Shown: positions 1-16,245 of the stretch, piece by piece | How the letters are laid out: every line of letters begins with the position of its first letter | Position numbering within the stretch: position 1 is the first letter of the stretch | DNA from: a virus | Length of the DNA stretch: 64,000 bases | Strand: one strand, 5' to 3' | IMG/VR virus record: IMGVR_UViG_3300033143_004594 | Span: 1-64,000 of that record | The notes under the pieces: model-generated | Databases searched by the model: none | Told to the model about the DNA's origin: nothing | The model's input: the letters and a program-made list of their open reading frames with translations, nothing else | Translations under genes and position numbers: made by a program

Positions 1-417
1 GGGGGGGCTTGGGATCTCGTCACCCATTTTAGGCTATCGAATCCGGCCGTTGAATCCTACCATGATCGATTATGATAACCTAGATTGTAATAATCGATCA
101 GGCGGTCCGCCTGATGACAGGCAGAAGCAGCGGAGATCGAGCGGTCCGCCTGTCTCCCTGATGACACAGAAGCAGAAGCGGAGATCGCCTGAGCGGACCG
201 CGGTTTTTTTCTGTTTGTTTTTTTCTGTCTGCTTAGATAATGTTTTTCTGTGTCTGTGTCGCTGTCTCCCTGTCTGCCTGATGAGACACAGAAGCGGACC
301 GCCTGATCGGTCTGTGTGTGTGTTTGATGAGACAGAAGCGGACCGCCTGATCGGTCTGTGTGTCTCCCTGTGTGGCGATCTCTGTGTGTGTCTGCTTCTG
401 TGTCCGCTTCTGTGTCT

Positions 418-441
418 CCGCCTAATACAGGCGGGTTTTTT
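418..441 (+). terminator. Intrinsic-terminator-like hairpin
   Basis: CCGCCT-aatac-AGGCGG followed by GTTTTTT. Confidence 0.5.
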
Positions 442-557
442 CTGTCTGTGTGTCGAGATCAGGCGGAGATCGGACCGCTCAGGCGATCTCTGCTTCTGTG
501 TCGCATTCTAAGCGGAGACAGGCGGAGATCAGGCGGTCCGCTTTCTATATAGTACAG

Positions 558-582
558 ACCGCCTATTTTTGTGGCGGTTTTT
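558..582 (+). terminator. Intrinsic-terminator-like hairpin just upstream of the promoter at 597
   Basis: ACCGCC-tatttttgt-GGCGGT followed by TTTT. Confidence 0.5.
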
Positions 583-596
583 CCCTGTGATCTCAC

Positions 597-626
597 TTGA
601 CAATAATTGACATTATAGGTTATGAT
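597..626 (+). promoter_or_regulatory. Sigma70-like promoter candidate
   Basis: TTGACA (597-602), 18-nt spacer, TATGAT (621-626). It lies ~70 nt upstream of the ATG at 693. Confidence 0.5.
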
Positions 627-640
627 TTATGTCCGCGGAA

Positions 641-695
641 AAACCGCGGACCGCTCAGGCAGACACAAGAACACACAAGGAGTAAAGCGATAATG
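641..695 (+). repeat. Partial or degenerate copy of the hairpin+RBS cassette upstream of the first small gene
   Basis: ccgcggaaaaaccgcggaccgctcaggc...caaggagtaaagcgataATG. It shares the GGACCGCTCAGGC word and the RBS block with the 58-bp cassettes. Confidence 0.6.
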
Positions 696-1166
696 ACAGG
701 CATTACAGAGAATACAGGAAAAACCGATCTAATTATTAGAGATCACAGACTCACAGAAGCGGACCGCCTGTATAAAAAATCATTCGATCTACACTTGAAA
801 GCGGAGACACAACTCGCACTATCTGAGATCATACGAGATCAGGCGGTCCGCTTAAAACTACAGGCGGAGAAAGCAGAAGCAGAAGCGGAGACAGGCGATC
901 ATTATATGGTTTTTCATTTTACTTGTGATCTAGTCATAGGGCACAATTTTACAGGGAGTGAAGTTATATTTTCCGCTATAGATGAGATCGAGATCATAAG
1001 ACACACAGAAGCGGACCGCAAAAAATACGATCAATTAATTGTCCGCTTCTGCTTAGAAAAAAATCCGCTATTCCATATTGATACATTGTATTTTACTCTG
1101 AGCGATATATCACATATTGACGATCACACAGGCGGACAATATAAACTCACAGAGATCACAATATAA
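693..1166 (+). CDS. Hypothetical small protein, EADRL-word family
   Basis: The ATG at 693 is preceded by caAGGAGtaaagcgata. The track ORF 597..1166 starts on a TTG inside the -35 box, so the internal start is preferred. Contains TEADRL, QAVRL and TEADRK words. Confidence 0.6.
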   Translation: MTGITENTGKTDLIIRDHRLTEADRLYKKSFDLHLKAETQLALSEIIRDQAVRLKLQAEKAEAEAETGDHYMVFHFTCDLVIGHNFTGSEVIFSAIDEIEIIRHTEADRKKYDQLIVRFCLEKNPLFHIDTLYFTLSDISHIDDHTGGQYKLTEITI

Positions 1167-1224
1167 CGGACCGCGGACCGCTCAGGCGGTCCGCCTGTAC
1201 TTTACAAGGAGTAAAGCGATTATG
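1167..1224 (+). repeat. 58-bp intergenic cassette copy 1: hairpin GCGGACCGC-TCAG-GCGGTCCGC followed by CTGTACTTTACAAGGAGTAAAGCGATTATG
   Basis: Near-identical to the copies at 1351, 2232 and 3272. Ends on the ATG of the downstream ORF. Confidence 0.9.
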
Positions 1225-1347
1225 ATCAAAGTATGGTTTTTTTGTGTTCTTGTTAGCATTCTGCTTTTGTACTACACAGAAGCGATCACAGCGGTTTTTT
1301 TTCTGATCGCTGTGGTTTTATATGAAACATGGAAGACGATCAATTAA
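1222..1347 (+). CDS. 41-aa hydrophobic (membrane) peptide
   Basis: ATG directly follows cassette copy 1. Sequence is MIKVWFFCVLVSILLLYY...AVFFLIAVVLYETW. Confidence 0.5.
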   Translation: MIKVWFFCVLVSILLLYYTEAITAVFFLIAVVLYETWKTIN

Positions 1348-1350
1348 TAT

Positions 1351-1408
1351 CAGACCGCGGACCGCTCAGGCGGTCCGCCTGTACTTTACAAGGAGTAAAG
1401 CGATAATG
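1351..1408 (+). repeat. 58-bp intergenic cassette copy 2
   Basis: cagaccgcggaccgctcaggcggtccgcctgtactttacaaggagtaaagcgataATG. Confidence 0.9.
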
Positions 1409-1723
1409 AACGATCACATATTGACAGAAGCAGCGGAGACAGAAGCGGACCGCCTAAGCATAGAAGCGGAGATCAAGCGATCTCACACTCGACACAGAGA
1501 GACTCACCACAGCGATCATTTTATGGTTTTTTCTGTCTGTGGTGATTTTACCCATTATGATCACCTGATCGCTTCTGTCTCCCTGATGGCAGACACAGAG
1601 ATCGAGATCGATTATATTGGCGAGCACACTATGATCGGTCTGATTATTTTGCCAAATGCTACAGAAGCGGAGATCACAGAAGCGGACCGCCTGTATAGTG
1701 AATTACAAGGAGTAAAGCGATAA
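1406..1723 (+). CDS. Hypothetical protein, MND-x4-EA/EADRL paralog family
   Basis: ATG follows cassette copy 2. N-terminus is MNDHILTEAAETEADRL. Confidence 0.65.
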   Translation: MNDHILTEAAETEADRLSIEAEIKRSHTRHRETHHSDHFMVFSVCGDFTHYDHLIASVSLMADTEIEIDYIGEHTMIGLIILPNATEAEITEADRLYSELQGVKR

Positions 1724-2220
1724 TGACACACAACAATTGTGGTTTTAACAGACCACAGAGATCGAGCGGTCCGCGGTCCGCTTCTGTACTTTCTCCGCCT
1801 GAGTGTGAGAACACATGGCGATCAGAGATAAAAAACCGCCACACATGCAAAGTAAAAAATACACAGGGAGACTCCGATCTCACTCTGATCTCTGACACAC
1901 AGGAGATCGATCACATTGGCGATTATTTAGGCATTAATCGCCTGAGTGAGGATTATGGTTGTCTGTTTGTCGAGATCGCTGATGGCGATTATGGTCATAT
2001 ATTGGGCTGTGAGTCTAATATTCCATACTTAGAAAAAATATTATATGACATAGATTATTATGAGGAAACATGGCGGTTTTTTCAGGAGATCGCAGAAAAA
2101 CACAGCGAGATCTATTGTCCTATGTGTGGCGGAGACTCCGCTCACTTGGGCACACTTGGCACACTTGATCATTATCGCTGTGTAATGTGTCATATGGAAT
2201 TCTCACGATCTCAGGAGTAA
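1723..2220 (+). CDS. Hypothetical protein with C-terminal zinc ribbon (CPMCGG...CVMCH)
   Basis: TAATG overlap with the upstream gene. An AAGGAGTAAAGCGATA RBS is embedded in the upstream gene's 3' end. Has a CxxC...CxxC motif. Confidence 0.7.
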   Translation: MTHNNCGFNRPQRSSGPRSASVLSPPECENTWRSEIKNRHTCKVKNTQGDSDLTLISDTQEIDHIGDYLGINRLSEDYGCLFVEIADGDYGHILGCESNIPYLEKILYDIDYYEETWRFFQEIAEKHSEIYCPMCGGDSAHLGTLGTLDHYRCVMCHMEFSRSQE

Positions 2221-2231
2221 AGCGATAATAA

Positions 2232-2289
2232 CAGACCGCGGACCGCTCAGGCGGTCCGCCTACACTTTACAAGGAGTAAAGCGATAATG
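2232..2289 (+). repeat. 58-bp intergenic cassette copy 3
   Basis: Same sequence apart from gcctaCActttac in place of gcctgTActttac. Confidence 0.9.
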
Positions 2290-2601
2290 AACGATCAAAC
2301 AATAGCAGAGATGGCATATACAGAAGCGGACCGCCTGAACACAGAAGCGGACCGCCTACAGGCAGAAGCGATCAAAATACAGGCAGAAGCGGACCGCCTG
2401 ATCGAAAAAATCACGAGCGGACCGCCTGATCTTGTGTATTACCAATACACAGGGAGATCGGATTTTTTCAATTATGAGAATTCGGGTGATCTCTGTTTTC
2501 ACACTCCGCCACAAGCGGAGAAAGCAGCGATCAATAATGGATTAATTACATGGCGAGTGATCATGGTCTGTGAGTATGTTGTCAAGACAGGGAAAGTATA
2601 A
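2287..2601 (+). CDS. Hypothetical protein, MND/EADRL paralog family
   Basis: ATG follows cassette copy 3. Sequence is MNDQTIAEMAYTEADRLNTEADRLQAE...EADRLIEK. Confidence 0.65.
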   Translation: MNDQTIAEMAYTEADRLNTEADRLQAEAIKIQAEADRLIEKITSGPPDLVYYQYTGRSDFFNYENSGDLCFHTPPQAEKAAINNGLITWRVIMVCEYVVKTGKV

Positions 2602-2602
2602 A

Positions 2603-3268
2603 ATGAACGATCTAATACTGGCAGAAGCGGAAAAAAAGAAAGCAGAAGCGGACCGCCACAGAAAAACCGCGGACCGCCTGATCGCAGAAGCGGACCGCCT
2701 GTCAAACGTATTTTATCTTAGAGATGAGATCGCAGAGAAAGCGGACCGCCTACAGGCAGAAGCGGACCGCCTGATCGCTTTCGCTGATCGCCTGATGGCA
2801 GAAGCGGAGAAAGCAGAAGCGGACCGCCTGATCGATAAAATCAGAAGCGGAGAAAAAATCAGAACATGGAAACATAAAACCGGCCTGTTTTTTATCGATC
2901 AGGAGATCACAGAGATCGAGATCGAATTATGGCAGACAGGCAGAAGCAGAAGCGGAGACAGAGATCGCCTGTCTTATGTTTTAAGTGAGAATAGTGTGCC
3001 TGTATTTTATGGTTTATCTGATCTAGGAATTCCGCCACACATGGCAATAGATAGCGATCTCTCTGTGTGTGCCTGTCTGTTTTTTCTCGCACTCAGGCAG
3101 GGAGACACAGACAGTGATTATTTTGAAAACTACACAGACACACAATTACAATGGATACACTCACAGACCGCCACAGAGATCAGGGAGATCGTGAGCATAT
3201 GTGAGGAAAATGATCTCACACTCGATCAGGCGATCTCTGTTATGTTAGCATGGGAAACAGAAAAATAA
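2603..3268 (+). CDS. Hypothetical protein, MND/EADRL paralog with an (A)EADRLI-repeat coiled-coil-like N-terminus
   Basis: The ATG at 2603 sits 1 nt after the upstream stop. Sequence is MNDLILAEAEKKKAEADRH..ADRLIAEADRL..., with at least 6 ADRL words. Confidence 0.6.
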   Translation: MNDLILAEAEKKKAEADRHRKTADRLIAEADRLSNVFYLRDEIAEKADRLQAEADRLIAFADRLMAEAEKAEADRLIDKIRSGEKIRTWKHKTGLFFIDQEITEIEIELWQTGRSRSGDRDRLSYVLSENSVPVFYGLSDLGIPPHMAIDSDLSVCACLFFLALRQGDTDSDYFENYTDTQLQWIHSQTATEIREIVSICEENDLTLDQAISVMLAWETEK

Positions 3269-3271
3269 TAT

Positions 3272-3329
3272 CAGACCGCGGACCGCTCAGGCGGTCCGCC
3301 TGTACTTTACAAGGAGTAAAGCGATTATG
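3272..3329 (+). repeat. 58-bp intergenic cassette copy 4
   Basis: Same sequence, ending in gcgattATG as copy 1 does. Confidence 0.9.
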
Positions 3330-3779
3330 ATCAGTTTAGAAGCAGCAAAAAATCTCACACATGGCGAGATCATTTATCACATAAGTCATAGGAATGCCGA
3401 TCAGACTCCGCAGAGATGGCGCATTAATGGCAAAGTGAAAACATGGAGAACCAGACCACAGGAGATCAGTATACCTATAAAACACGGTTTATATGATTAT
3501 GGTTATTTAACACACAATGATCTTGATCTTGTGTGTCTGTCAGAAGCAGAAGCGGAGATCGTGACGAACTCAGGCACAGAGATCGGACATTATGATTATT
3601 TATATCGAAACATAAAACACAGAGATTATATTTATGGCTGTGTGTTACCACAGGCGGACCGCCTACAGAGATCGATCATTGTAGGCGGAGATCGGACAAT
3701 TGATGATCAGGGAGTGACAACAATTACAGGCGGAATCACCTATTATTTTCCTATAGGTGAGGAATCCGGCCTAAATTGA
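3327..3779 (+). CDS. Hypothetical protein
   Basis: ATG follows cassette copy 4. 150 aa of ordinary composition. Confidence 0.75.
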   Translation: MISLEAAKNLTHGEIIYHISHRNADQTPQRWRINGKVKTWRTRPQEISIPIKHGLYDYGYLTHNDLDLVCLSEAEAEIVTNSGTEIGHYDYLYRNIKHRDYIYGCVLPQADRLQRSIIVGGDRTIDDQGVTTITGGITYYFPIGEESGLN

Positions 3780-3808
3780 CAGAAAAACCACAAACAGACC
3801 ACAAACAG

Positions 3809-3845
3809 ACCACAGAGATCGATCAGGTGATCTCTGTGGTTTTTT
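3809..3845 (+). terminator. Intrinsic terminator after the small-gene cluster
   Basis: 12-bp stem ACCACAGAGATC/GATCTCTGTGGT, 8-nt loop, then TTTTT. It lies 30 nt after the stop at 3779. Confidence 0.8.
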
Positions 3846-3911
3846 CTGTGTGTAGACCACAGAAGCAGCGGAGATCGGACCGCCTGAGCGGTCCGCCTGT
3901 CTGCCTGTCTG

Positions 3912-3972
3912 CTTCTGCGGTCTGTGTGCCTGTCTCCCTGTCACTTTGATCGAGATCGGACCGCTCAGGCGG
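3912..3972 (+). repeat. 61-bp direct repeat, copy a
   Basis: cttctgcggtctgtgtgCctgtctccctgtcactttgatcgagatcggaccgctcaggcgg. One mismatch to 4135-4195. Confidence 0.85.
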
Positions 3973-4008
3973 TTTTTTTCCGATCAGGCGGTCCGCCTGT
4001 CTGCCTGT

Positions 4009-4055
4009 CTGCTTCTGCTTCTGTGGTCTGTGTCATCAGGCAGAAGCAGAAGCAG
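4009..4055. repeat. Perfect 15-bp inverted repeat (CTGCTTCTGCTTCTG / CAGAAGCAGAAGCAG) with a 17-nt spacer
   Basis: Read directly. Arms are at 4009-4023 and 4041-4055. Confidence 0.85.
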
Positions 4056-4134
4056 AGATCGCCTGAGCGGACAATACAGGCGATCTCTGTGTCTGCCTGT
4101 CTGCTTCTGCCTGTCTCCGCTGCTTCTGCTTCTG

Positions 4135-4195
4135 CTTCTGCGGTCTGTGTGTCTGTCTCCCTGTCACTTTGATCGAGATCGGACCGCTCAGGCGG
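4135..4195 (+). repeat. 61-bp direct repeat, copy b
   Basis: Matches 3912-3972 with one mismatch. Confidence 0.85.
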
Positions 4196-4221
4196 AGATC
4201 GATCAGGCGGTCCGCCTGTCT
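4181..4221 (+). repeat. 41-bp direct repeat, copy a
   Basis: ggaccgctcaggcggagatcgatcaggcggtccgcctgtct. Identical to 4271-4311. Confidence 0.85.
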
Positions 4222-4270
4222 GCTTCTGTTATCCCAGGACACAGACCGCCACAGAGATCAGGCGGACCGC

Positions 4271-4311
4271 GGACCGCTCAGGCGGAGATCGATCAGGCGG
4301 TCCGCCTGTCT
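4271..4311 (+). repeat. 41-bp direct repeat, copy b
   Basis: Identical to 4181-4221. Confidence 0.85.
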
Positions 4312-4501
4312 TCCCAGCTGGGATCGGCCGACTGGCAGAAGCAGCGGAGATCAGGCGATCATGGTTCATTCACACGCGCAAAAATGATCGGTGAGCAGAA
4401 TTTTATAATGTTTTCGGCCGGGTCTTTTTGGTTTTTCTGGTTTTTTTTATTGGTTTACGGCCGGGTTTTTCCGGCGCGATTACACACAAGGAGTAAAGTA
4501 T

Positions 4502-4873
4502 ATGATCACAGCTATAGTTATGGGCGCATATGGTAAAAAAGATGAGTACAGAGTGGATCGACTTGCTAACCGTGGCGAGTGGTTCGGTAAAACTTGGTTC
4601 GTTGGGATCGGTTGCGGGTTCGATATACACCGCGTAGTAGTAGAAGCGGACAATGAGTCAGAGGTGATCGACGCCTTGACGGATTCGGCCGCTGGTCACT
4701 TGATAAAAGTTGATGAGGAATGCCCCCATCAAGATCCTGATCAATGGGATCAATGTAATTGCACATTTGCCGGTAATTTTTCTGATCGCGTCGATCTGGA
4801 TGACATTCGAATTCTGAAGCGTTGCAAAGTAAAATATTTTGAACCGGCCGATCGTTGGTTGGATATTAGCTAA
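4502..4873 (+). CDS. Hypothetical protein (123 aa) isolated between two non-coding repeat blocks
   Basis: ATG preceded by caAGGAGtaaagtat. Normal amino-acid composition. Confidence 0.75.
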   Translation: MITAIVMGAYGKKDEYRVDRLANRGEWFGKTWFVGIGCGFDIHRVVVEADNESEVIDALTDSAAGHLIKVDEECPHQDPDQWDQCNCTFAGNFSDRVDLDDIRILKRCKVKYFEPADRWLDIS

Positions 4874-4902
4874 ACAGACAGACACAGACCACAGGATCAG
4901 AC

Positions 4903-4927
4903 AGGATCGGCCGGTTTTCGGCCGGTC
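4903..4927 (+). other. 10-bp-stem hairpin downstream of the 4502..4873 gene
   Basis: GGATCGGCCG-gtttt-CGGCCGGTCC with one G-T wobble. No T-run follows, so it is not a canonical terminator. Confidence 0.45.
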
Positions 4928-5040
4928 CTGAGTGTGATCGCGTCTCTGTATGGTTTTACCTGTCTGCCTGTCTGCCTGTCTGCCTGAGCGGAGATCGGAC
5001 CGCTTGATCGGTCTGCTTCTGCTTCTGTGTCTCCGCTTGT

Positions 5041-5210
5041 GCCTGTCTGCCTGTGTTCTCATTGGGCGGACCGCTCAGGCGATCTCTGTGTGTGTGTCCG
5101 CCTGTCTGCCTGTGTCCTCATCAGGCGGACCGCTCAGGCGATCTCTGTGTCTCCCTGTCTGCCTGTCTGCTTCTGTGTGTCTGCCTGTGTCCTCATCAGG
5201 CGGAGATCGG
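5041..5210 (+). repeat. About 2.8 tandem copies of a ~60-bp unit
   Basis: Unit is gcctgtctgcctgtgtYctcatYRggcggaccgctcaggcgatctctgtgt. Unit starts are at 5041, 5100 and 5161 (the last is partial). Confidence 0.8.
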
Positions 5211-5344
5211 CCGGTTCTACCACAGGTAAAACGCGCCGGCGCGGAAAGTCTGAACGGCCGTTCGATCCTTGCCGGCCAACGGTCCGCGGCGAGTGTGGTC
5301 GAGCGGGCAGCGGGCGGACCGTGGGCGGGGGCGCTTCTACTATA

Positions 5345-5449
5345 TACACGCGGGATCGACATAGGCGAGCAGAATTTACACGCGCTAAGGGGTTCGGCCG
5401 CCTTAAAAAATACACGCGGCCGGGGAGGTGCGAGCAGAATTTACACGCG
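5345..5449 (+). repeat. Four TACACGCG iterons at 31-34 bp spacing; two are part of a 20-bp repeat GCGAGCAGAATTTACACGCG
   Basis: TACACGCG at 5345, 5377, 5411 and 5442. The 20-mers are at 5365-5384 and 5430-5449. A related GTGAGCAGAATTTTATAATG is at ~4391. Confidence 0.75.
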
Positions 5450-5507
5450 GATCGAAGGGGGGCGGGCTGGAGTTGGCAGCAAATCGGGCGGATCGGTTCT
5501 CATTTAC

Positions 5508-5535
5508 TTGACAAGCAATTATAAGGTGTTATTAT
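5508..5535 (+). promoter_or_regulatory. Sigma70-like promoter candidate for the 5592 operon
   Basis: TTGACA (5508-5513), 16-nt spacer, TATTAT (5530-5535). Confidence 0.5.
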
Positions 5536-5591
5536 CTATCTATCCGACGCGGGCCGCGGGCGGTCCGCCTTAGTAATAAGGAGCAAGCGAA

Positions 5592-6359
5592 ATGATAAAT
5601 GATCAGAATTTAGAGATCGGGCAATTGGTAAAGGTTAGCAGATCGCTCACCGTGGGCGATCTATATGGGGCGGGACATTCTCAGGCGGGGGAAGTGGTGA
5701 TCGTGGCGGGGGAAGTCGGCCGGGTTATATCGCCTGTCATTGCAGAGGCGCGGGACGGGTCGAAGTTGGATCGGCCGTGGGTTGTGGTTCGCTTTTTCTT
5801 CACTTTGCCGGATCACTACCGGCGCGATCCAACCTGTGAACCGGTCCACAATATAAAGATCGGGCGGCTGGAAGCGGTGACAGAGGCGGAAGCGGTGATC
5901 CTGATTATGATCGGGCGCTATGGTAAACCGTGGGCCAATACGAGACAGGATCGGGCGGCTATGGCCTCATATATGGATCAGCGGCCGTTATATGACGATC
6001 CCGGCGTTTTGGGTAACTGGAGATCAGCGGCTTCTATCTTGTCAGAAGTGGCGGAGCGGGTGAGCCTTGCTGCTTGGGGGGTTCATCCGGCCGGGGAGAC
6101 GGATCTCACCGTATACATGGAAGCGGGCGATCCGGGTGAGCGGGTCAATTGTGAGGGGTTCGTTGTGGACGGGGACGGGGGGATCGTCTTTGATACTGTA
6201 GGCGGCGGGCCGTATCTCTGCGAAAGTTGCAACAAATCGATCCGGTTCTTGACATGCTCAGGGCGGGCGATCTGTGAGGCATGTCTGGACGCGGAGATCG
6301 CAGAGGCGGAAGCGGTGACAGGGGCGGGCTATATTACGCCTAATGAGGCGATCATATAA
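5592..6359 (+). CDS. Hypothetical protein with C-terminal Cys cluster (CESC...C...CEAC)
   Basis: ATG preceded by tAAGGAGcaagcgaa. 255 aa. Confidence 0.8.
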   Translation: MINDQNLEIGQLVKVSRSLTVGDLYGAGHSQAGEVVIVAGEVGRVISPVIAEARDGSKLDRPWVVVRFFFTLPDHYRRDPTCEPVHNIKIGRLEAVTEAEAVILIMIGRYGKPWANTRQDRAAMASYMDQRPLYDDPGVLGNWRSAASILSEVAERVSLAAWGVHPAGETDLTVYMEAGDPGERVNCEGFVVDGDGGIVFDTVGGGPYLCESCNKSIRFLTCSGRAICEACLDAEIAEAEAVTGAGYITPNEAII

Positions 6360-6724
6360 TGGCTATACGAAACGGTATAAAGTGGGGTAACGGGCGGATC
6401 TGGCAAATGATCGGGAAAGCAGCAAGGGAAGCGGAGCGGGCCGAGCAGATCGAGCGGGTGAAAGCAGAGACGGCCGCGGGGGGTTTTCCGCTGTGCCTCT
6501 GTGACATATGCCTATATTATGAAAACGATCCCGCGGACCGGGCCAAGTGGCGGATCATTATGCACAGGCGGCGATCACAACTGATCGCGCTTAGCCGTCA
6601 CTATCTGCGAAACTTTCACGGCTTCACAGCGGCGGAGTGTGATCAGTTCGGTCCTGAGTGTGATCGGGTCATTCTGGCACATAATGACGCGGCGATCCGT
6701 TGTGGCGGTGATCCTATTGTATAA
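6359..6724 (+). CDS. Hypothetical protein
   Basis: TAATG start/stop overlap with the upstream gene. 121 aa. Confidence 0.7.
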   Translation: MAIRNGIKWGNGRIWQMIGKAAREAERAEQIERVKAETAAGGFPLCLCDICLYYENDPADRAKWRIIMHRRRSQLIALSRHYLRNFHGFTAAECDQFGPECDRVILAHNDAAIRCGGDPIV

Positions 6725-6771
6725 CCAACGCGGGCCGGGTTCGGCTTGCCTTAGCTAAGGAGTAAAGCGAA

Positions 6772-9700
6772 ATGATACAGATCCACGATAAACAGACAGA
6801 AGCGAACGCGGGCCAAGCGGAACGGGCGACACTTTACCACCGATCCGGGCTTGGCCTTGGTTATAACAAGCGGGAAGTAAAGCGGATCGAATGGGCGCGG
6901 GGTCAATATGCCCAATATGATCAGGCGGTCCGGCTACGCTGGAGAGAACCCCGGCAACGCAAAGATCGCCAAACATGGCTCACTTATAAGCCGGACGCGG
7001 TGATCGTGGCGGGCTGGAATAACCCCGATCCGCCGTCCTCATATAACACAACTAAGGACAAAGACGGAACGATCCAACGCGGGAAATATACCAGTTTCGA
7101 TCCCCGCTTTACTTCCGATTTTCGGTCATGGCTTGCGGACGCGGGCCTCACGGTGATCGCGGACTTTCACAAGGCGGAGACAGGCGATCAGGGGTCGATC
7201 TCCCTTACAGAGATCGCGGAGCGGGGGCGGGCTGAGCGAGAAGCAGAAGCGGAGAAAGCAACGCGGATCGCGTCTGTTATAACGGAAGCAGAACCGGCCG
7301 AACTGGAAGCAGAGACGGAAGCGGGCGATCTTGGGGCTTATGATACGGCGGATAATTGGATCAATCGTTGGGGTGACTTCTACAAAGACACACAACAACA
7401 CAACGCGGAAGCGGCCAAACTGGAAACAGAACCCGATCCCCTTGCTGATTATTCTAACGGGGATCTACTTGGTGATTATTTGGATCTGTGTCCTCATTAT
7501 GATCAATCTGATGAGGATATAACGGAGATCAGGACCGTACTCACGGCGCGGGGCTTCTTATTTGTGGCTCAGGCGGACGGGGGCGGGCCAACAGAGGCGG
7601 AAGTCAAAACCACGGCGGATCGGCTCATCAGGGAAGCAAAAACGGCGGACCGGGCCAACGGACGCGGGCCGGGGTTCGATATATGGACTAAGGCACAAGC
7701 AGCGGCCAAAGCAGAAGCGGCGGAAGCTGAGCAACACGCGGAGACAGAACCCGCGGACCGGGTAAAGATTGAACCGGCCGACGCGGATCGCTTTGAATAT
7801 ATCGAACCCGAACCCGATCCAGTTATGCCAGCGGGCGCGGCGGAGTCAATCACAGGTAAAGAAGTTGGAAAAATGATCCGGCCACGGTTGCGGGCTATCT
7901 TTCCCGGCGTCACGTTCTATGTAAGGACTGATCATAGTTCACTTGATATAAGCTGGATCGACGGGCCAACGGGGGCGGAAGTCAAAAAGATCGCGGGCCA
8001 ATATGACGGCGGCGGCTTCGATGGCATGATCGATCTTGGTTATTGTATTTATCATTGGTTAATGCCAGATGGATCGACGCGGATCGCCTATTCCAGCGGT
8101 ACAGCGGGATCGGGGGGTTCTGTGTCCGCGTTTGGCGGTGACGGGTCAAAGCCTGATCCGGGGGCGCGGTTGGTTAGCTTCCACACGGAATATATAAACT
8201 GTAAACGGGCGCATTCGGCCGACTTCTTAAAGCGGGCGGGGGAGCAAATCAGCGGTGAGTATAATTGGCCTGTGCCAAAGATTGAAGCTAGTACAACATG
8301 GATCTCACACTCCAAAACTATTGACGGCGCGTCATTTGTCCATGATCCGATCAACGCTCCAGCCCCCGCGGATCATTTTCGGGCGGGCGGGTCGCCTTAT
8401 GTCCGATCTTTGGGCGGGGTTTTCGATCACGCGGCTCACGATATAAGCTATTATGAACCGCCAAAAGCAAAGCCGAAAGCTAAGCGGGCCGCGGGCGGGG
8501 CTTCTGTCGATTATGATCCCGCGGAAGCGGTGATCACCTATAGTGAGCGGAACGGCGCGATCTGGACATGGATCGAAACGGTAAAACCCCCGGCCGATGT
8601 GAGGGACGGGCTAACGGGGATCGGCTTCTTTTGGTGGCGGAAGCGGGGCAAATGGGCCGCCAAGCAAGAGATCGCAGAGGACACGATCCGCGCTATACTG
8701 GAAGGGGGATCGGGCGCTCAGGGAGACGGGGACGGGGGCGGAGAAGCTGATCCGCCGTCCTCATCCCCAAGCAAGCCAAAGACTAAGGCCGAACCGGGGA
8801 CAGAACCCGATCAAGCTAAGGCGGAGAAGCTGATCGCCTTGGCGGACTCCTTCGACAAACAGATCCAAAAGAAGCGGGACACGTTCAAAGGGGCTAACCT
8901 CACTCACAGGCGGGCGGAGTTCATAGCGTCCGCAAACTATGACGCGGATCGAATGCAAGAAGCACAAATGATCCTGATCGCCTTGGCGGACCTGTGGACA
9001 GTTGGAAGCGTCCCGGCGCAATTTAGGAAAATGGGAACTAAAAAAACGGCGCTGGAGTTGACTCACAATATCCGGGCGCGGGCTAAGTATGGGGATAAGT
9101 ACCCATCAGACTATAATGATCGTGTTTGGGGGTCATGGGGCGATTATAACGCGGCTCACGCATGGGCGGACCGGGTGATCTCAGGGGTCGATAACACTGA
9201 GCGAGACGCGGAGCGAAAGATCGCCGGGCTGGAGCAAAACGCCAAATTTGCCAAGATCCGCGGGTTTTTCCCCACTCCGCGGGCCGTGGCGGATCTTATG
9301 CTGGAGCATGTGAACCTCACAGAGGGGGATCTTGTTTTAGAACCCTCAGCGGGATCGGGCGCTCTATGCGATATGATCGCGGAATACTTCCCACGCGCCA
9401 CGCTTCACGCGGTCGAAGTGTCTCACATGCTCAGGGAGATCCTCACCTTAAAGGGGCACGAGTTGATCGGCCGGGACATTTACGATCTCGATCCTGTGGA
9501 TAGCATCGGAAAATATGACGCGATCATAATGAATCCCCCATTTGAAAAAATGCAAGACGCCGATCACGTTCGCTTTTGTTATGCGATGTTAAAAAGCGGC
9601 GGAACGCTAGTGAGCGTTATGTCCCCGTCACCCTTCCACAATTCCACTCACGCGGCGGCGGATTTCCGATCATGGTTCGATACATTTGGCGGTGAGAAGT

Positions 9701-9777
9701 TCGATCTCCCCGTTGGCAGCTTCAAAAAGTCCGGGACGGGCGTAAGTTCTTGTTTTATTGTCATCAGCAAAGATTAG
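6772..9777 (+). CDS. Large multidomain (polyvalent-like) protein with a C-terminal gamma-class N6-adenine DNA methyltransferase domain
   Basis: ATG preceded by AAGGAGTAAAGCGAA. The C-terminus has FFPTPRAV (motif X), VLEPSAGSGAL (motif I) and NPPF (motif IV, 9532-9543). The N-terminal ~820 aa has acidic/Ala-rich linkers and globular domains of unknown function. Confidence 0.8.
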   Translation: MIQIHDKQTEANAGQAERATLYHRSGLGLGYNKREVKRIEWARGQYAQYDQAVRLRWREPRQRKDRQTWLTYKPDAVIVAGWNNPDPPSSYNTTKDKDGTIQRGKYTSFDPRFTSDFRSWLADAGLTVIADFHKAETGDQGSISLTEIAERGRAEREAEAEKATRIASVITEAEPAELEAETEAGDLGAYDTADNWINRWGDFYKDTQQHNAEAAKLETEPDPLADYSNGDLLGDYLDLCPHYDQSDEDITEIRTVLTARGFLFVAQADGGGPTEAEVKTTADRLIREAKTADRANGRGPGFDIWTKAQAAAKAEAAEAEQHAETEPADRVKIEPADADRFEYIEPEPDPVMPAGAAESITGKEVGKMIRPRLRAIFPGVTFYVRTDHSSLDISWIDGPTGAEVKKIAGQYDGGGFDGMIDLGYCIYHWLMPDGSTRIAYSSGTAGSGGSVSAFGGDGSKPDPGARLVSFHTEYINCKRAHSADFLKRAGEQISGEYNWPVPKIEASTTWISHSKTIDGASFVHDPINAPAPADHFRAGGSPYVRSLGGVFDHAAHDISYYEPPKAKPKAKRAAGGASVDYDPAEAVITYSERNGAIWTWIETVKPPADVRDGLTGIGFFWWRKRGKWAAKQEIAEDTIRAILEGGSGAQGDGDGGGEADPPSSSPSKPKTKAEPGTEPDQAKAEKLIALADSFDKQIQKKRDTFKGANLTHRRAEFIASANYDADRMQEAQMILIALADLWTVGSVPAQFRKMGTKKTALELTHNIRARAKYGDKYPSDYNDRVWGSWGDYNAAHAWADRVISGVDNTERDAERKIAGLEQNAKFAKIRGFFPTPRAVADLMLEHVNLTEGDLVLEPSAGSGALCDMIAEYFPRATLHAVEVSHMLREILTLKGHELIGRDIYDLDPVDSIGKYDAIIMNPPFEKMQDADHVRFCYAMLKSGGTLVSVMSPSPFHNSTHAAADFRSWFDTFGGEKFDLPVGSFKKSGTGVSSCFIVISKD

Positions 9778-9804
9778 GGCCGGGAACGGTCAAAGGATCG
9801 TATT

Positions 9805-10005
9805 ATGTACTATGTATTTTCCTACTATACCAAAAGATACAACGCCAAAGGGGAGATCGTGACCGAGTACGCGCCACGGCTACACACGATCAAAAAGAAT
9901 ATTGAGACGGAAGCGGAAGCACAACAGGCGGTGAGGGATTATGACGCCACTCACAAACGCGGGCCGCTCGGCCGGGTTGCTGGATATGATGACCAAAGAC
10001 GCTAA
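9805..10005 (+). CDS. Hypothetical protein
   Basis: 66-aa ORF in the gene array, with a weak SD (aaagga). Confidence 0.5.
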   Translation: MYYVFSYYTKRYNAKGEIVTEYAPRLHTIKKNIETEAEAQQAVRDYDATHKRGPLGRVAGYDDQRR

Positions 10006-10018
10006 AGGAGATCAACCA

Positions 10019-10432
10019 ATGAACGATCAAGAAAAAATACACGCGGACACGGAACACGCGCCAGAAGTCGATCCGGGCTTCTCGGGGCTTCACACGCGGG
10101 AAACGTGGGAGCAAATCTCACAGGCGCTATTCAAGATTGAACAGACGGCCGTAACGCTCCAGCGCCAAGCTAAGCGGGCGCAATACTACGCGGGCGCGGC
10201 TAGTTCGCTTCTTTTCTTGCTGGAGCAAGAACCCGAAACGCTAGAAAAAATGCTTGATTCTTTGGGGCTTCACATGGATGAGCACGATCAGCGGATCGAT
10301 CTCCTTACAAGCAGTACGGCGGACTCTGATCAATGGGCCGTAGCATCGGCCGAAACTCTGATCGCGTTACATGAACTCAATCAACTTTGGGGTACATTAG
10401 ATCCTTTAGTACAAGAGTTAGGTATTAACTAA
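10019..10432 (+). CDS. Hypothetical protein
   Basis: The internal ATG at 10019 is preceded by aAAGGAGatcaacca and follows the upstream stop at 10005. Confidence 0.65.
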   Translation: MNDQEKIHADTEHAPEVDPGFSGLHTRETWEQISQALFKIEQTAVTLQRQAKRAQYYAGAASSLLFLLEQEPETLEKMLDSLGLHMDEHDQRIDLLTSSTADSDQWAVASAETLIALHELNQLWGTLDPLVQELGIN

Positions 10433-10482
10433 ATAAACACGCGCTAGAGCGATCCAGCGCCTTAAAATAAGGAGTAAGCGAA

Positions 10483-11160
10483 ATGAGTCACAATGTATTT
10501 ATGACAGAGGACGTTAACACATTCAGCACATTAATGTATCAATACGGCCACGGATCGAGCGGGCGCGGGCCTTGGCGGGTGATTGGCGGTGACGATCTCC
10601 GTTCTGAGGGGATCAAATTTGACGCCACTCCGCGCCACTGGTACATAACTAACACGCTCACAGGCGTTTCTAAGCGGATCGGACCGTCCACAGGCCGGGG
10701 CACTAATTACTTTGATCGGGCGCGGTTATTGGCCGAGCAACGTAACCAAGACCACTGGAGCAAGAACCCGCCAACGCTGAACACACCTGATGAGATCGCG
10801 GACCTGTGGATCGAGCGGGATCGGATCGTCCTGGAGTTTAACGGATCTGATAAGGTTGGGATCAGGGTACGCGGTTTTAATGCTGTGATCAATGCCTATT
10901 TTGAGAAGCTACCCGGCCGGGGTTGGGTCGAAATTGGCGGACCGTTCCAAGGTTTTAACCGGGTACTTGGGCCGGGGTTCAATTGGTCCTCAGAGGGGCT
11001 ACAGGTACAGATCCGCGGCGGCCAATGGAAGCATAACAAGATCCAACCGGGCGAAATTAAGCGGCTGGAAGGGCTGATCGCGGGTTGGCTGGAGTCTCAA
11101 CACCTACGCGATCTGGAAGTCAAGGTAACACGCACTAGGGGCGGGGAGCGTCTGTACTAA
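10483..11160 (+). CDS. Hypothetical protein
   Basis: ATG preceded by tAAGGAGtaagcgaa. 225 aa. Confidence 0.8.
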   Translation: MSHNVFMTEDVNTFSTLMYQYGHGSSGRGPWRVIGGDDLRSEGIKFDATPRHWYITNTLTGVSKRIGPSTGRGTNYFDRARLLAEQRNQDHWSKNPPTLNTPDEIADLWIERDRIVLEFNGSDKVGIRVRGFNAVINAYFEKLPGRGWVEIGGPFQGFNRVLGPGFNWSSEGLQVQIRGGQWKHNKIQPGEIKRLEGLIAGWLESQHLRDLEVKVTRTRGGERLY

Positions 11161-11372
11161 TGGACAAAAACGCGCTCACGATCACAATAAACGGCCGTAA
11201 TTGGCGGGGGTCACGCTTTGTAGATGAGGTTGATCTCGCCGTCCTGGAAAAAATGATCGCCATGTACCTGGAGCACAAACAGTACGCGATCTTTGAAACA
11301 CGCCAAGCGCCGGATCATATTGTTTATGATTATACGGTCACGGTAACGCGCTCCAGCGGGGGATCGGCTTAA
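11160..11372 (+). CDS. Hypothetical protein
   Basis: TAATG overlap coupling. 70 aa. Confidence 0.6.
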   Translation: MDKNALTITINGRNWRGSRFVDEVDLAVLEKMIAMYLEHKQYAIFETRQAPDHIVYDYTVTVTRSSGGSA

Positions 11373-11653
11373 TGTTCACTTTTGAGACTGATTGTACCTG
11401 TAGTACGGCGCGGTGGATCAACAATATGGTTGATCAGGCGCGTGAGGTTACTTATGAGACGCTAGTACGCCGGGTAGGGGTCGATCAATTGGCCTCTGTG
11501 TTTCCCTTCTACGAGTGGGGGCGCGGGACGCGGGCGGGCCTCAGAATGAAAGATGACTATATGATCAGCTACTATCGGAGCAAATACCGCGGGCGGACCT
11601 GCTACTATGTTTGTCATTCATCTATTGAATATATTTTCACTGAGTCCGGCTAA
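11372..11653 (+). CDS. Hypothetical protein
   Basis: TAATG overlap coupling. 93 aa. Confidence 0.65.
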   Translation: MFTFETDCTCSTARWINNMVDQAREVTYETLVRRVGVDQLASVFPFYEWGRGTRAGLRMKDDYMISYYRSKYRGRTCYYVCHSSIEYIFTESG

Positions 11654-11673
11654 GGCCGGGAAGGAAAAGCGAA

Positions 11674-12357
11674 ATGATAAAAGTAAACGCATCAGATATT
11701 AAAGTTAATTTGCTCCTGGATGATTGTCCCGATCTGTCATGGTTGGGGACGTTTGGAACTAAGCCGGAAACGGATCAGGCGATCAAGCACAACGGCGGGC
11801 GTAATACGCTCCCTTGGTTCAATCCTGGTAACGCGGGTGAGGATTATGAGGACGAATATTGCCAGCAAGATTATGAGCGGATCATGGGCTATGAAAATGG
11901 GGATTGGTATATGATGGGCGTCCGGGCCAAGATCACGCTCACGCTCCCTGAGTTCAAGGAAAACGCTTTACAACGGCTCGGCCGTCGGTTGGGCCTGTTA
12001 AAACGGGTTCACAAGTCCTGGAGTCTACACGAATTCAATACGCCGGGGCTATGGGGGGTCGAATCTGACTCTGATTATTTCCTGGAAGTCTGGATTGAAG
12101 AGGTTTACTCACTCGTTGCCCAACTCAGGCAGCTAAACATTAAGGTTAAGAATGATCACGCGGGCTTCTTAACGGTTGATCCCCCCTTCGATAGTGAGTC
12201 TGTTATCACCCTCAGTGATAGGCAACGGGCGGACCTGGATCGGGCGCTGGCCGCCGGTCCGTTTTGGGCGAAGCGTTTCGGGCGCTGGATCGTTCGGTTA
12301 TTAGATAGTCGATACGCCAAAACTCAGGCGGAGATCGCAGTATTTAACGCGGCTTAG
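11674..12357 (+). CDS. Hypothetical protein
   Basis: ATG preceded by gGAAGGAaaagcgaa. 227 aa. Confidence 0.8.
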   Translation: MIKVNASDIKVNLLLDDCPDLSWLGTFGTKPETDQAIKHNGGRNTLPWFNPGNAGEDYEDEYCQQDYERIMGYENGDWYMMGVRAKITLTLPEFKENALQRLGRRLGLLKRVHKSWSLHEFNTPGLWGVESDSDYFLEVWIEEVYSLVAQLRQLNIKVKNDHAGFLTVDPPFDSESVITLSDRQRADLDRALAAGPFWAKRFGRWIVRLLDSRYAKTQAEIAVFNAA

Positions 12358-12421
12358 GGCGTTTGGGGTATCACAGGTTATATCGGGCCACTTAGGGCCG
12401 TAAGGCCAAAGGATAAGCGAA

Positions 12422-12949
12422 ATGAAAGATACTAACGAGATCACAATAAAGAATCATAAACATGGAAAAACCTATTTTGGGAAGCGTAACGCGGCCATTA
12501 TCACGAACCCGATAGGGGCAACATTTACAAGCGTCCGCTTCTATGAAAGTGAGGCCGATCTACAGGCCGGGGATCTGGCCTTGTCTTTTCGCAGGGACTT
12601 CCGAAACTGGACGAAAATAAGCGGCCGGAAGCAAGCCGAGATCGCGGCCACTATTTGGGCCAATATGACGCGGGGTGTAACCGTTTGGGATAACGGCGGA
12701 GCAACGGCCGATCGTTACCGGGTCATTATTAATACCTCTGTGTACTATATGAGCAAACGCGCCAACCAACCAAACGGGGTGTGCATGTATTCGGGCGAAA
12801 CATTCAACAACCATGAAAACACAGGAGATCCAAAGAAGCGGATCGCGCTCGGGGATCTTCCGCTCGGGGTTGCATCGCAGATCGGATACCTCATCTATGC
12901 TGAGCATGAACACCTAGAATACTTAAAGGAGATCGGCCATGTTCAATAA
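12422..12949 (+). CDS. Hypothetical protein
   Basis: ATG preceded by aAAGGAtaagcgaa. 175 aa. Confidence 0.75.
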   Translation: MKDTNEITIKNHKHGKTYFGKRNAAIITNPIGATFTSVRFYESEADLQAGDLALSFRRDFRNWTKISGRKQAEIAATIWANMTRGVTVWDNGGATADRYRVIINTSVYYMSKRANQPNGVCMYSGETFNNHENTGDPKKRIALGDLPLGVASQIGYLIYAEHEHLEYLKEIGHVQ

Positions 12950-13781
12950 AAAACTGATCGTCAATGGAAATTTGGAGATCGCAGAGTCAGGAGGGGGCTT
13001 CACTCCCTGCTTGATCATGGTTGGGCCTAAACCGCTCGACACGCTGATCGCTGAGCATGTAGGAATCAAGAAGTCCGGCCGGGAACACGCGCTCCAGGAT
13101 AACGCCAACCATTATTTGGGGCATGTTCAGATCACTATTGAACCGGTCTATATCGTTTGCCCTGGGTGTGGTGATTCTAACCTGAATTATGATCATAATG
13201 ACGATATACGCGGGCGCTTCTTGTATGATTGCTTGGCCTGTGGTATCAGCTTCGATGAGGACGGCGCAAAGAATACGCGCTGGCTCACCGTGGCGGACGT
13301 TCAGGACCGTTGTAATTTTATCTCTATGACTAATAAGCCCCTTCTCCGTTTTTGGGCGCAGTATTTAGAGATGAATGTTGGGGTCAAGTTTGGAAACGGG
13401 GGGATCTATAGCCGTTGGGATCTGGATCTAGGGGGCTACGCGGAAATTTACCTCACAGAATCAGACGCGCCACGCGCCAGGGATAGGGTTTTTCCTTATT
13501 TAATCGTGGTTGATCGAACCGATCAGAATGATGAACCTGTACCGGCCGATCTCGTTATCATGCCTACCCATGATAAGCTGGACGTGGGGGACTTTCTTAA
13601 CCTGCTCTTTTTTGTCCCCTGGTATGAGTGTGAGGGAGTGCTGCTAGTCTCAGGCGCGGAGATCAACAACGTGACAACACTCCAACCGGCCGACGCGGGG
13701 ATCGATATTGTGGCAAGTCAGATATTTAAGATAGATGAGTCCCTGAAAAACTTCGATAATCATGGTGGGTTCAGCATTTAA
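12939..13781 (+). CDS. Hypothetical protein with a zinc-ribbon-like CPGC...CLAC motif
   Basis: AAGGAG lies 8 nt upstream, inside the previous gene's 3' end. 280 aa. Confidence 0.75.
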   Translation: MFNKKLIVNGNLEIAESGGGFTPCLIMVGPKPLDTLIAEHVGIKKSGREHALQDNANHYLGHVQITIEPVYIVCPGCGDSNLNYDHNDDIRGRFLYDCLACGISFDEDGAKNTRWLTVADVQDRCNFISMTNKPLLRFWAQYLEMNVGVKFGNGGIYSRWDLDLGGYAEIYLTESDAPRARDRVFPYLIVVDRTDQNDEPVPADLVIMPTHDKLDVGDFLNLLFFVPWYECEGVLLVSGAEINNVTTLQPADAGIDIVASQIFKIDESLKNFDNHGGFSI

Positions 13782-13797
13782 TAAGGAGTAAAGCGAA

Positions 13798-14127
13798 ATG
13801 AAGAAAAACAAATCATTCAAATGGAAAGTTACGCTTCTGACAGACTCGGGCAACTTCAAAGGATCTCCCTTCTCTAGTAGCCGATTTGACGCGGAAGGGT
13901 TCAGGATCGGGGACATAATCGTAACGCAAATCAAGGCCGACGCGGTAACAATCGGGCGGAACTATGTCCAACGAAAACCGCCCTATGATAAGCGTAAGGC
14001 TATCATCCAACGCCGTTGGGGAGCGATCAAGCCGTCTCAGGTTCTTTATTCCCAAGGCATGATAATCGAAAAGAATCAGGCTCACCATATCGATCCGGCT
14101 TCGCCAACCGGCTATAGCGTTATATAA
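13798..14127 (+). CDS. Hypothetical protein
   Basis: ATG preceded by tAAGGAGTAAAGCGAA. 109 aa. Confidence 0.7.
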   Translation: MKKNKSFKWKVTLLTDSGNFKGSPFSSSRFDAEGFRIGDIIVTQIKADAVTIGRNYVQRKPPYDKRKAIIQRRWGAIKPSQVLYSQGMIIEKNQAHHIDPASPTGYSVI

Positions 14128-14144
14128 CGCAAAGGAGATCAATT

Positions 14145-15618: not shown

Positions 15619-15624
15619 AAAGAT

Positions 15625-15651
15625 AAGCCCCGGCTGATAAGACCGGGGCTT
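15625..15651 (+). terminator. Hairpin after the 15013..15618 gene (terminator-like, no clear T-run)
   Basis: AAGCCCCGG-ctgataaga-CCGGGGCTT. Confidence 0.4.
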
Positions 15652-15678
15652 GGCATACCCCTTGCGGAGTAAAGCGAA

Positions 15679-16234: not shown

Positions 16235-16245
16235 AGGAGTTTGCC

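Follow-up and report, generated by a model that had tools for sequence, protein, structure and literature searches.

A nine-base-pair palindrome iterated through the early region of an orphan phage, at the apex of a left-end compositional gradient

We analyzed the first 64,000 nt (positions 1–64000; hereafter, the window) of the virus record IMGVR_UViG_3300033143_004594, which belongs to a phage genome of ~90 kb found in JGI metagenomes (longest contig, 90,081 bp). The palindromic 9-mer GCGGWCCGC, in which W is A or T, occurred 43 times in the window; 42 of these copies were within positions 102–5568, and the other 58.4 kb contained one, at 52405. The first 5.6 kb reads as an early transcription module that extends from the left end to the leader of the gene at 5592, and the array sits at the apex of a compositional gradient reaching about 12–20 kb from the left end. 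The array consists of iterated cis-elements of the early, leading region of a phage, with a putative function, and stands outside every known family considered.

The 7-bp core of the word, CGGWCCG, matched the window 65 times, with 50 matches between 103 and 5567 and 15 elsewhere. Dinucleotide-preserving shuffles of the whole window gave 7.75 ± 2.97 matches with a maximum of 19. Markov models trained on positions 1–5591 gave 0.5, 1.7, and 10.4 matches at orders 1, 2, and 3, respectively, against the 50 observed; since the simulated counts were far below this number, local composition does not account for it. A preliminary description of this DNA had counted about 50 copies in positions 1–5591 and scattered ones beyond, and both statements were confirmed with these backgrounds. 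The late region at 30–64 kb, which is expected to mirror the host-adapted composition, had only 4 copies of CGGWCCG.

The conserved unit is the 9-mer and not the 7-mer, which the same description had taken as the unit. The base at ±4 from the CGGWCCG center was G/C in 92 of 100 half-sites, the 42 exact 9-mers (expectation in the shuffles, 0.57 for the window) stood against only 9 one-mismatch copies in positions 1–5591, and past ±4 the flanks split into a few word classes (CCTG, TTCTG, TCAGG, and GG). The longer words reported earlier all exist, with counts of 11+1 for GACCGCTCAGGC and 13+1 for GAAGCGGACC, while the full 15-mer CAGGCGGWCCGCCTG covered only 7 of the 50 sites. The copies scattered to the right of the array were without the 9-mer and were mostly GCGGACCGG, reading A-D-R. 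The core is identical to the recognition sequence of RsrII/CpoI, and no enzyme or methyltransferase cognate to it was identified. Selection of the 7-bp core as such, as for an RsrII-type site, was not what we found: positions ±4 were 92% conserved, and one 9-mer was present among the 15 copies outside the array. In three places (1167/1174, 1767/1774, and 4263/4270), copies of the site lay in tandem 7 bp apart.

With respect to DNA class, 32 sites were in non-coding DNA (2369 nt) and 18 in coding DNA (3222 nt), so that the earlier statement that the word appears both inside genes and in about 2 kb of non-coding DNA held in both parts, the non-coding part measuring 2369 nt. All 18 coding copies fell in seven small early genes between 693 and 3779. 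They had been said to occur in every frame, which is incorrect: 15 of the 18 are in the same frame, and in 14 of these the word reads GCG-GAC-CGC (A-D-R) within (T/A)EADRL heptads. In the motif-free codon use of the early genes, 62 of 75 Asp codons (83%) were GAT, 20 of 49 Arg codons were AGA, and 17 of 61 Ala codons were GCG. The prior for GCG-GAC-CGC was about 0.01 per occurrence, yet this spelling was used in 14 of 16 ADR tripeptides. A GAC-to-GAT change in the ADR copies would leave the peptide the same and create a new GATC, a word that the region otherwise accumulates, and ADR further right was written as GCGGATCGN or GCGGACCGG. The uniform spelling of the 14 in-frame copies despite the GAT and AGA preference supports the earlier proposal of selection on the nucleic acid rather than on the protein: the word is conserved at the nucleotide level inside the genes, and the protein is apparently not the driver. 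The heptad repeats of two paralogous early genes (2287–2601 and 2603–3268) comprised 10 in-frame ADR copies and one copy in another frame, at 2418. These 11 copies were all of the A form, without a free T-form partner. Recent duplication or gene conversion could lie behind the coding copies.

The A-D-R tripeptide itself was found 16 times in the early genes, where 0.4 was expected, and 8 times against 1.7 expected in 5.6–20.5 kb; it was not over-represented in the late genes (2 vs 2.4). In the plus-strand genes at 693–20532, A-D-R was nearly always written as GCGGAYCGN.

The features of the module and the other features discussed below are listed in Table 1. The limits of the array coincide with landmarks of the module, the first site lying at 102 and the last one, at 5560–5568, in the leader of the second promoter, upstream of gene 5592. 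Near 194 and at 417–435, block A had hairpins that resemble terminators and lead into T-runs. The z-scores of RNA folding were −10 (plus strand) and −11 (minus strand) for block A and −11 and −13 for block B, against about 0 for controls. The leader hairpin of the early operon lies roughly 15–25 nt downstream of the inferred transcription start. No Pfam or PHROG family was matched by any of the seven early genes. Block B contained recent duplications (3908–3972 vs 4131–4195, 98%; 4180–4221 vs 4270–4311, 100%). A search for hidden genes in the non-coding blocks revealed no credible open reading frame (ORF), the six frames containing stops or low-complexity sequence. A 207-aa gene that the JGI pipeline predicted in block C (4950–5573) looks spurious, with a low-complexity translation and no ribosome-binding site.

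Sixteen non-coding sites pair up as eight perfect inverted hairpin pairs of an A-form and a T-form copy, with stems of 8–9 bp. Four of these pairs form part of a cassette that recurs, nearly identical, between the early genes; in it, a 9-bp GC hairpin (GCGGACCGC-UCAG-GCGGUCCGC) starts a few bases past a stop codon and is followed by a small ribosome-binding-site hairpin and the next ATG. The second hairpin shows AAGGA(G) in its loop (CUUUAC-AAGGA-GUAAAG). The folding energy of the cassette was about −25 kcal/mol, with a z-score of about −4. No promoter match was found in the cassettes, and a search with Rfam covariance models, including the CRISPR direct-repeat families, yielded only chance-level matches of microRNA type, far under the gathering scores.

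Table 1. Coordinates of the array, of the early module, and of other features in the window.
Feature	Position	Strand	Remarks
Array domain	102–5568		42 exact GCGGWCCGC, 50 CGGWCCG; first copy 102–110, last copy 5560–5568
GATC-saturated, low-complexity leading segment	1–16000		Delimited by GATC density and distinct hexamers per kb
Non-coding repeat block A	1–596		7 CGGWCCG sites (6 exact 9-mers); dense inverted repeats
Sigma-70-type promoter of early operon	597–626	+	TTGACA, 18 nt, TATGAT; 11/12 consensus matches
5′ leader hairpin	631–654	+	GUCCGCGG-AAAAA-CCGCGGAC; overlaps site 646–654
Seven small early genes	693–1166, 1222–1347, 1406–1723, 1723–2220, 2287–2601, 2603–3268, 3327–3779	+	
Cassette 1	1161–1224	+	Hairpin 1173–1194; ATG at 1222
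Cassette 2	1345–1408	+	Hairpin 1357–1378
Cassette 3	2226–2289	+	Hairpin 2238–2259
Cassette 4	3266–3329	+	Hairpin 3278–3299
21-nt in-frame heptad repeats	2321–2833	+	CAGAAGCGGACCGCCTG... = (T/A)EADRL; in paralogous genes 2287–2601 and 2603–3268
Non-coding repeat block B	3780–4501		9 sites; 70-nt hairpin 3853–3924 (−45.8 kcal/mol)
Strong intrinsic terminator, end of early operon	3807–3848	+	15-bp stem followed by T-run
Early gene without 9-mer site	4502–4873	+	
Non-coding repeat block C	4874–5591		6 sites; 59-nt tandem repeats 5024–5216
Second sigma-70-type promoter	5508–5535	+	TTGACA, 16 nt, TATTAT; 11/12
Polyvalent protein, 1001 aa	6772–9777	+	LPD29 domain; C-terminal NPPF-type methyltransferase domain
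DPPY protein, 569 aa	25612–27321	+	Possible N6-adenine methyltransferase; no Pfam match
N6_N4 methyltransferase, 504 aa	27488–29002	+	SPPY motif

The palindrome is not a lone element, as the preliminary description had treated it; the first 5.6 kb is also built from other over-used words, namely GATC (130 copies, 6-fold), GAGATC (61), CAGGCG (58), CAGAAGC (50), and runs of CTGTCTG type. With several over-used words in GATC-saturated DNA, an account of CGGWCCG alone is incomplete. The first 5.6 kb contained 1217 distinct canonical hexamers; other 5.6-kb windows contained about 1780, and shuffled sequence 1931. These properties changed gradually from the left end. The GATC counts per 4 kb were 95, 96, 87, 56, 32, and 17 before leveling off at about 15, as expected at random; expressed per kb, GATC was present at 22–27 copies up to about 11 kb and reached the random level of about 4 by 20 kb. 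Within 13 kb, distinct hexamers per kb climbed from 451 to about 740, and the observed-to-expected ratio of the tetramer palindromes ACGT, AGCT, CTAG, TGCA, GTAC, and GCGC was 0.14 in 1–4 kb, 0.29 in 4–8 kb, and about 0.5 elsewhere.

Palindromes were also purged over the whole window, in which 28 of the 64 hexamer palindromes had zero copies, about 15 copies of each being expected. CGATCG had 4 copies and AGATCT had 1. On the other hand, CGGCCG was present in 129 copies, about 8-fold over expectation, with only one in the first 4 kb. GATC, CGGCCG, CGGWCCG, and CCGCGG are classic restriction-modification specificities. Of the three reading frames, two (GAT-C and G-ATC) carried the GATC enrichment. 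A helical phasing of GATC of the SeqA type was rejected, as there was no 10.5-bp periodicity. In positions 1–12000, GAAGCGG was found 44 times on the plus strand and 10 times on the minus strand, with the same left-end gradient, and AGCGG 142 and 88 times, respectively. In S. aureus and B. subtilis, words identical to these serve as Chi sites. An array of Chi sites was set aside: the two words are simply the E-A codons of the EA(D/E) coding repeats, so that their match to Chi is probably a coincidence, and the E. coli Chi was not enriched.

Over positions 1464–14467, the arrangement is no assembly artifact, because contigs from other samples agree with it. Two contigs corresponded to window positions 1464–14467 (L121) and 4904–8130 (L122), with only two single-nucleotide polymorphisms (SNPs) relative to the window. 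Positions 2668 and 4849 (C/A) were the sole differences over 13 kb from the other-sample contig, and the first of these immediately precedes the 9-mer site at 2669. The support from independent assemblies covers 1464–14467, positions 1–1463 being without a second copy. An assembly artifact, which would have undone the observation according to the preliminary description, was thus checked within these limits. A shufflon or other site-specific inversion was set aside in view of the identical arrangement in three samples. In a contig that extends 6.6 kb past the window (L123), the motif was not enriched.

The phage represents an orphan lineage from sediment-type metagenomes. No near match to it was found in INPHARED, and tblastn searches with the DnaB helicase and a 510-aa late protein as queries revealed no close phage. 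The 22-mer hairpin was absent from IMG/VR. A search for the 15-mer, which had been proposed earlier, returned only single chance matches. The 20-mer hairpin had 17 single matches in GC-rich JGI metagenome contigs, none of which was related by blastn or tblastx, and both scans of GTDB genomes were empty. The earlier impression that no phage element of this kind has been described thus withstood searches of INPHARED, IMG/VR, GTDB genomes, JGI metagenome contigs, and Rfam, and no published GATC-rich phage early region was found in the literature.

Gene 4502–4873 was the only early gene with homologues, at 41–67% identity, which lie in early regions of unrelated phages and are surrounded by tiny ORFs. 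These loci showed no 9-mer array, GATC enrichment, or low complexity. Since neither the homologue loci nor the databases contained the array, it is specific to this lineage. The gene had 10 GATC at conserved residues, against 0–1 in four orthologues (L173:3845–4216, L175:2704–3072, L178:2019–2357, and L180:1585–1920; 47–67% amino-acid identity), one of which has a similar GC content. The GATC pressure is lineage-specific and acts on DNA. The predicted structure of the protein (pLDDT 62.8) had no meaningful match in PDB. For gene 5592–6359, no homologue was found.

Searches with the 1001-aa polyvalent protein in IMG/VR returned only matches sharing the LPD29 domain alone, which are not relatives. 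The only distant relative of its gene (49% identity) was on a 4354-nt contig from a marine sediment metagenome (L142), in which GATC was found 69 times against 16.6 expected. This contig over-uses a different palindrome, GCCGGC (13 copies), and ends about 550 nt upstream of the gene, beside a consensus sigma-70 promoter.

Four motif IV-type sequences, typical of methyltransferases, were found in the window (NPPF at 9532, DPPF at 12178, DPPY at 25708, and SPPY at 27587), and only two of the four proteins had Pfam methyltransferase matches. SPPY is typical of N4-cytosine enzymes. The genes of the four candidates are at 6772–9777, 11674–12357, 25612–27321, and 27488–29002. Searches of PDB and NCBIfam for the specificity of these candidates were uninformative. 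The over-used sites may be read or modified by the 1001-aa polyvalent protein. The preliminary description had suggested that the array might be a target of a phage methyltransferase; three to four candidates do exist, while a 7-bp enzyme site leaves the conserved ±4 positions unexplained.

Among the readings weighed, we favor, tentatively, the one in which the array comprises duplex-DNA recognition sites of a dimeric protein controlling the early module. This proposal of the preliminary description is kept as the best candidate. A dimeric, sequence-specific protein would occupy about 40 GCGGWCCGC sites spanning both promoter leaders, gene bodies, and the three non-coding blocks, and once bound would switch off the whole module as an operator plus elongation roadblock. 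Because the word is self-complementary, its inverted pairs double as hairpin stems and would also supply the 8–9-bp GC stems of the RNA hairpins punctuating the early operon. The strict 9-bp core with variable flanks, of about 17 bits, resembles a transcription-factor site more closely than a 7-bp enzyme site. The reading is also favored by the sharp confinement of the 9-mer (42 copies vs 1) to a module with functional landmarks at its edges, by its presence in both promoter leaders, and by its spelling inside genes against the local codon and GATC bias. For silencing through many repressor sites that block elongation, phage stoperators are a precedent and the nearest working analogy (PMC9283540), although the array does not belong to that family. 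The 11 A-form copies in genes 2287–3268 are without a T-form partner, and RNA hairpins therefore cannot account for them. Omega and MetJ repressors show ribbon-helix-helix-type binding to heptad repeats, and the tandem copies offset by 7 bp would be compatible with binding of this type.

Several observations weigh against a protein reading the sites. No cognate DNA-binding protein and no repressor-like family were seen among the scanned ORFs of the window; the early proteins matched no family, and scans of the other ORFs yielded only a replication-type helix-turn-helix protein (23048–24004) and a weak helix-turn-helix match (29389–29787). The array was not found in any related genome in the searched databases. 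The other over-used words (CAGAAGC, GAGATC, CAGGCG, and GATC) are left unexplained by a single binding protein, and a density of about 7.5 sites per kb, with many sites in coding sequence, is to our knowledge unprecedented among operator arrays. Moreover, the variation from repeat to repeat was mostly in word-level blocks with few scattered substitutions; together with the 98–100% duplications, this means that the scarcity of decayed copies may reflect youth or gene conversion and not selection.

It is also possible, although we rank it after the dimeric-protein reading, that the word acts at the RNA level only, as stem material of hairpins in a mobile regulatory cassette. The hairpins would then serve as 3′ stabilizers, RNase III-type processing sites, attenuators, or terminators, and recombination at the cassettes and repeat blocks would exchange small early genes; the coding copies would be secondary, products of tandem 21-nt expansion within a family of paralogs. 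The eight perfect A/T inverted pairs, the four cassettes spanning stop codon to next ATG, the hairpin at the 5′ end of the operon leader, and the terminators made of the same words are consistent with this, as are the folding of blocks A and B at z-scores of −10 to −13, the horizontally shared gene 4502–4873 flanked by two repeat blocks, and the 98–100% duplications, which point to ongoing copy-and-paste; the stem-loops called PeSLs in T4-type phages offer a precedent (PMC4122927). However, hairpins need no common stem sequence, yet every stem is alike, and the 11 copies in 2287–3268, present in the A form only, cannot make perfect hairpins. Both strands fold equally, with no pointer to the transcribed strand, transcription of blocks A, B, and C is presupposed, and the cassettes are without the promoter that PeSLs carry. 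We consider it unlikely that the array has no function of its own and is young low-complexity DNA that arose in a hyperplastic early region from a few oligonucleotides, by repeated local duplication, slippage, and gene conversion, with the 9-mer as its most conspicuous word. Non-palindromic words are equally over-used, the hexamer vocabulary is reduced (1217 distinct hexamers vs about 1780 elsewhere), short tandem arrays and 98–100% duplications are many, and the copies vary by words rather than by point mutations, all as such an origin would predict. It fits poorly with an array boundary that matches functional landmarks, with the survival of the word under the local pressure to GAT and GATC, and with ordered positions behind stop codons and in promoter leaders; the same arrangement in three samples, with 2 SNPs, shows no sign of instability.

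A link to methylation is rather doubtful, somewhat less so than an array without function. Here, the leading end would be purged of restriction targets and rewritten in words (GATC, CGGWCCG, and, elsewhere, CGGCCG) that are methylated in the virion beforehand by phage or host enzymes. The left end would enter first and be exposed before anti-defense genes act, and dense methylation, or a co-injected polyvalent protein bearing a methyltransferase, would protect or control the incoming DNA. Only this reading also covers the gradient, the purge, the GATC saturation, and the three to four methyltransferase candidates, including the polyvalent LPD29-methyltransferase. It agrees with the left-end gradient in GATC, palindrome avoidance, and complexity, with the absence of 28 of 64 hexamer palindromes, and with the GATC enrichment that is lineage-specific on conserved residues (10 vs 0–1) and recurs in L142. 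The few over-used palindromes (GATC, CGGCCG, CGGWCCG, and CCGCGG) are all restriction-modification specificities. Over-used palindromes of cyanobacteria go together with matching methyltransferases (PMC4390886), and the first-step-transfer DNA of T5, with its untranslated repeat regions, is a precedent (10.1101/866236). Nevertheless, the unit is 9 bp rather than 7 bp and the outside copies are without it; a protected site should be tolerated, with an observed-to-expected ratio of about 1, and not enriched about 1000-fold; and the enrichment is local, while methylation is genome-wide. A physical end and an entry polarity are presupposed, and the searches gave no specificity for the candidate enzymes. 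In a wider form, considered about as doubtful, the vocabulary of the leading 5–12 kb would have been narrowed by rewriting, and the segment would serve the phage in the first moments of infection. This vocabulary may consist of GATC every ~43 bp, GCGGWCCGC in 42 copies, and hardly any other short palindrome. A safe leader of this kind, pre-methylated or protein-coated, would evade the many restriction systems of the host and let a phage factor time or gate expression and the entry of the remaining genome; it would correspond, in sequence-encoded form and without homology, to the first-step transfer of T5. Centromere-like sites for partition or genome organization (of the parS, sopC, or KorB-operator type) in a plasmid-like prophage are very improbable. 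The palindrome is multi-copy and the Xer-like recombinase at 17552–18499 would suit dimer resolution, but no ParA, ParB, or KorB-like partition gene (SopA/SopB included) was seen among the ORFs scanned in the window, and known centromeres have far fewer sites, outside early genes. Least likely of all is that the array titrates, as a decoy, a host restriction enzyme or defense sensor, as suggested earlier, or that it mimics CRISPR RNA repeats (an RNA anti-CRISPR). The possible leading-end position and a superficial likeness of the hairpin to a CRISPR repeat hairpin speak for it; the decoy is unsupported, a cleavable site in the phage's own DNA would presumably be lethal, and Rfam, with its CRISPR direct-repeat families, gave no match at E < 5.

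When compared with known systems, the array lacked tested defining features of every family considered and shared a working logic with several. The stoperators of cluster A mycobacteriophages such as L5 and Bxb1 are many sites for one repressor, which silences by blocking elongation; they are asymmetric 13-mers bound by a monomer, number more than 20, are spread genome-wide in promoters and short intergenic gaps, and have an orientation tied to transcription (PMC9283540). The array is similar in having many copies of one short site downstream of early promoters and differs in that its unit is a symmetric 9-mer, that 42 copies are crowded into 5.6 kb, and that 18 of the 50 sites fall inside genes; neither an asymmetric monomer site nor a genome-wide spread was found, as 42 of the 43 copies lie in 5.6 kb. 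The first-step-transfer DNA of T5, with its injection stop signal region, has three untranslated blocks of direct repeats, inverted repeats, and palindromes (10.1101/866236). Comparable repeat-dense untranslated regions were present here (1–596, 3780–4501, and 4874–5591), and the leading segment, about 6–8% of the genome, also has small genes of unknown function and host-type promoters. Paired DnaA boxes as in T5 were not seen, TTWTNCACA having 6 matches in the window and none in 1–5591. There was no sequence or gene homology to T5, in which the repeats vary instead of iterating one word and stay out of coding sequence. The T5 segment lies in a long terminal direct repeat at the first-entering end and carries the pre-early genes A1, A2, and dmp; the early genes here matched no family.

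The HIP1 palindrome and its alternates in cyanobacteria occur genome-wide at 0.5–2.5 per kb and are tied to methyltransferases (PMC4390886). Like them, GCGGWCCGC is a short GC-rich palindrome, hugely over-represented in coding and non-coding DNA; unlike them, it reaches 7.5 per kb in only 5.6 kb and is not genome-wide. CGGCCG is the HIP-like word of this phage, at about 2 per kb genome-wide (129 in 64 kb), and HIP1 had no copy in the window. A cyanobacterial host, to which HIP-like words might point, was tentatively set aside on the absence of HIP1, the avoidance of CGATCG, and the strong Shine-Dalgarno sites in the genes. The early genes of T7 are separated by RNase III sites. PeSLs of T4-type phages are composite terminator/promoter stem-loops that flank horizontally exchanged genes (PMC4122927). 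The array has in common with both the repeated stem-loops between small early genes, and a horizontally shared gene is flanked here as well; it differs from PeSLs in cassettes made of a hairpin plus ribosome-binding site, with no promoter, and in the word being present 18 times inside genes.

The rest of the window had the gene content of a tailed phage, including the DnaB helicase, an M23 peptidase, a collagen-like tail fiber, and an Xer-like tyrosine recombinase. The recombinase (17552–18499) scored best as XerC/XerD-like (E about 1e-36), above classical phage integrase. The gene for the tail fiber (57331–61827, minus strand; 1498 aa) was the only other low-complexity stretch in the window, with 219–526 distinct hexamers per kb, and is unrelated to the array. 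The word ACACGCG had 16 copies on the plus strand and zero on the minus strand (4372, 5346–5449, 10039–10098, 10437, and others). In block C, four copies at 5346–5449, with a spacing of 31–34 nt, alternate with GAGCAGAATTT immediately before the promoter at 5508; upstream of gene 4502, a pair of the two words is also present. This pair may be a phage-specific promoter or regulator site.

The finding is highly non-random and unusual, and the gradient with the array at its apex, which the preliminary description had missed, is its most interesting aspect. If the sites are read by a protein, they would form the densest operator-like array described in a phage, and a cis-signal would be written through coding sequence by codon choice. 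If the segment is a defense-evasion leader, the order of DNA entry can shape sequence composition as a measurable gradient; such a gradient would be searchable elsewhere and would predict entry polarity and early regions from sequence. The extreme avoidance of restriction sites makes this phage a useful model of the arms race with hosts rich in restriction-modification systems.

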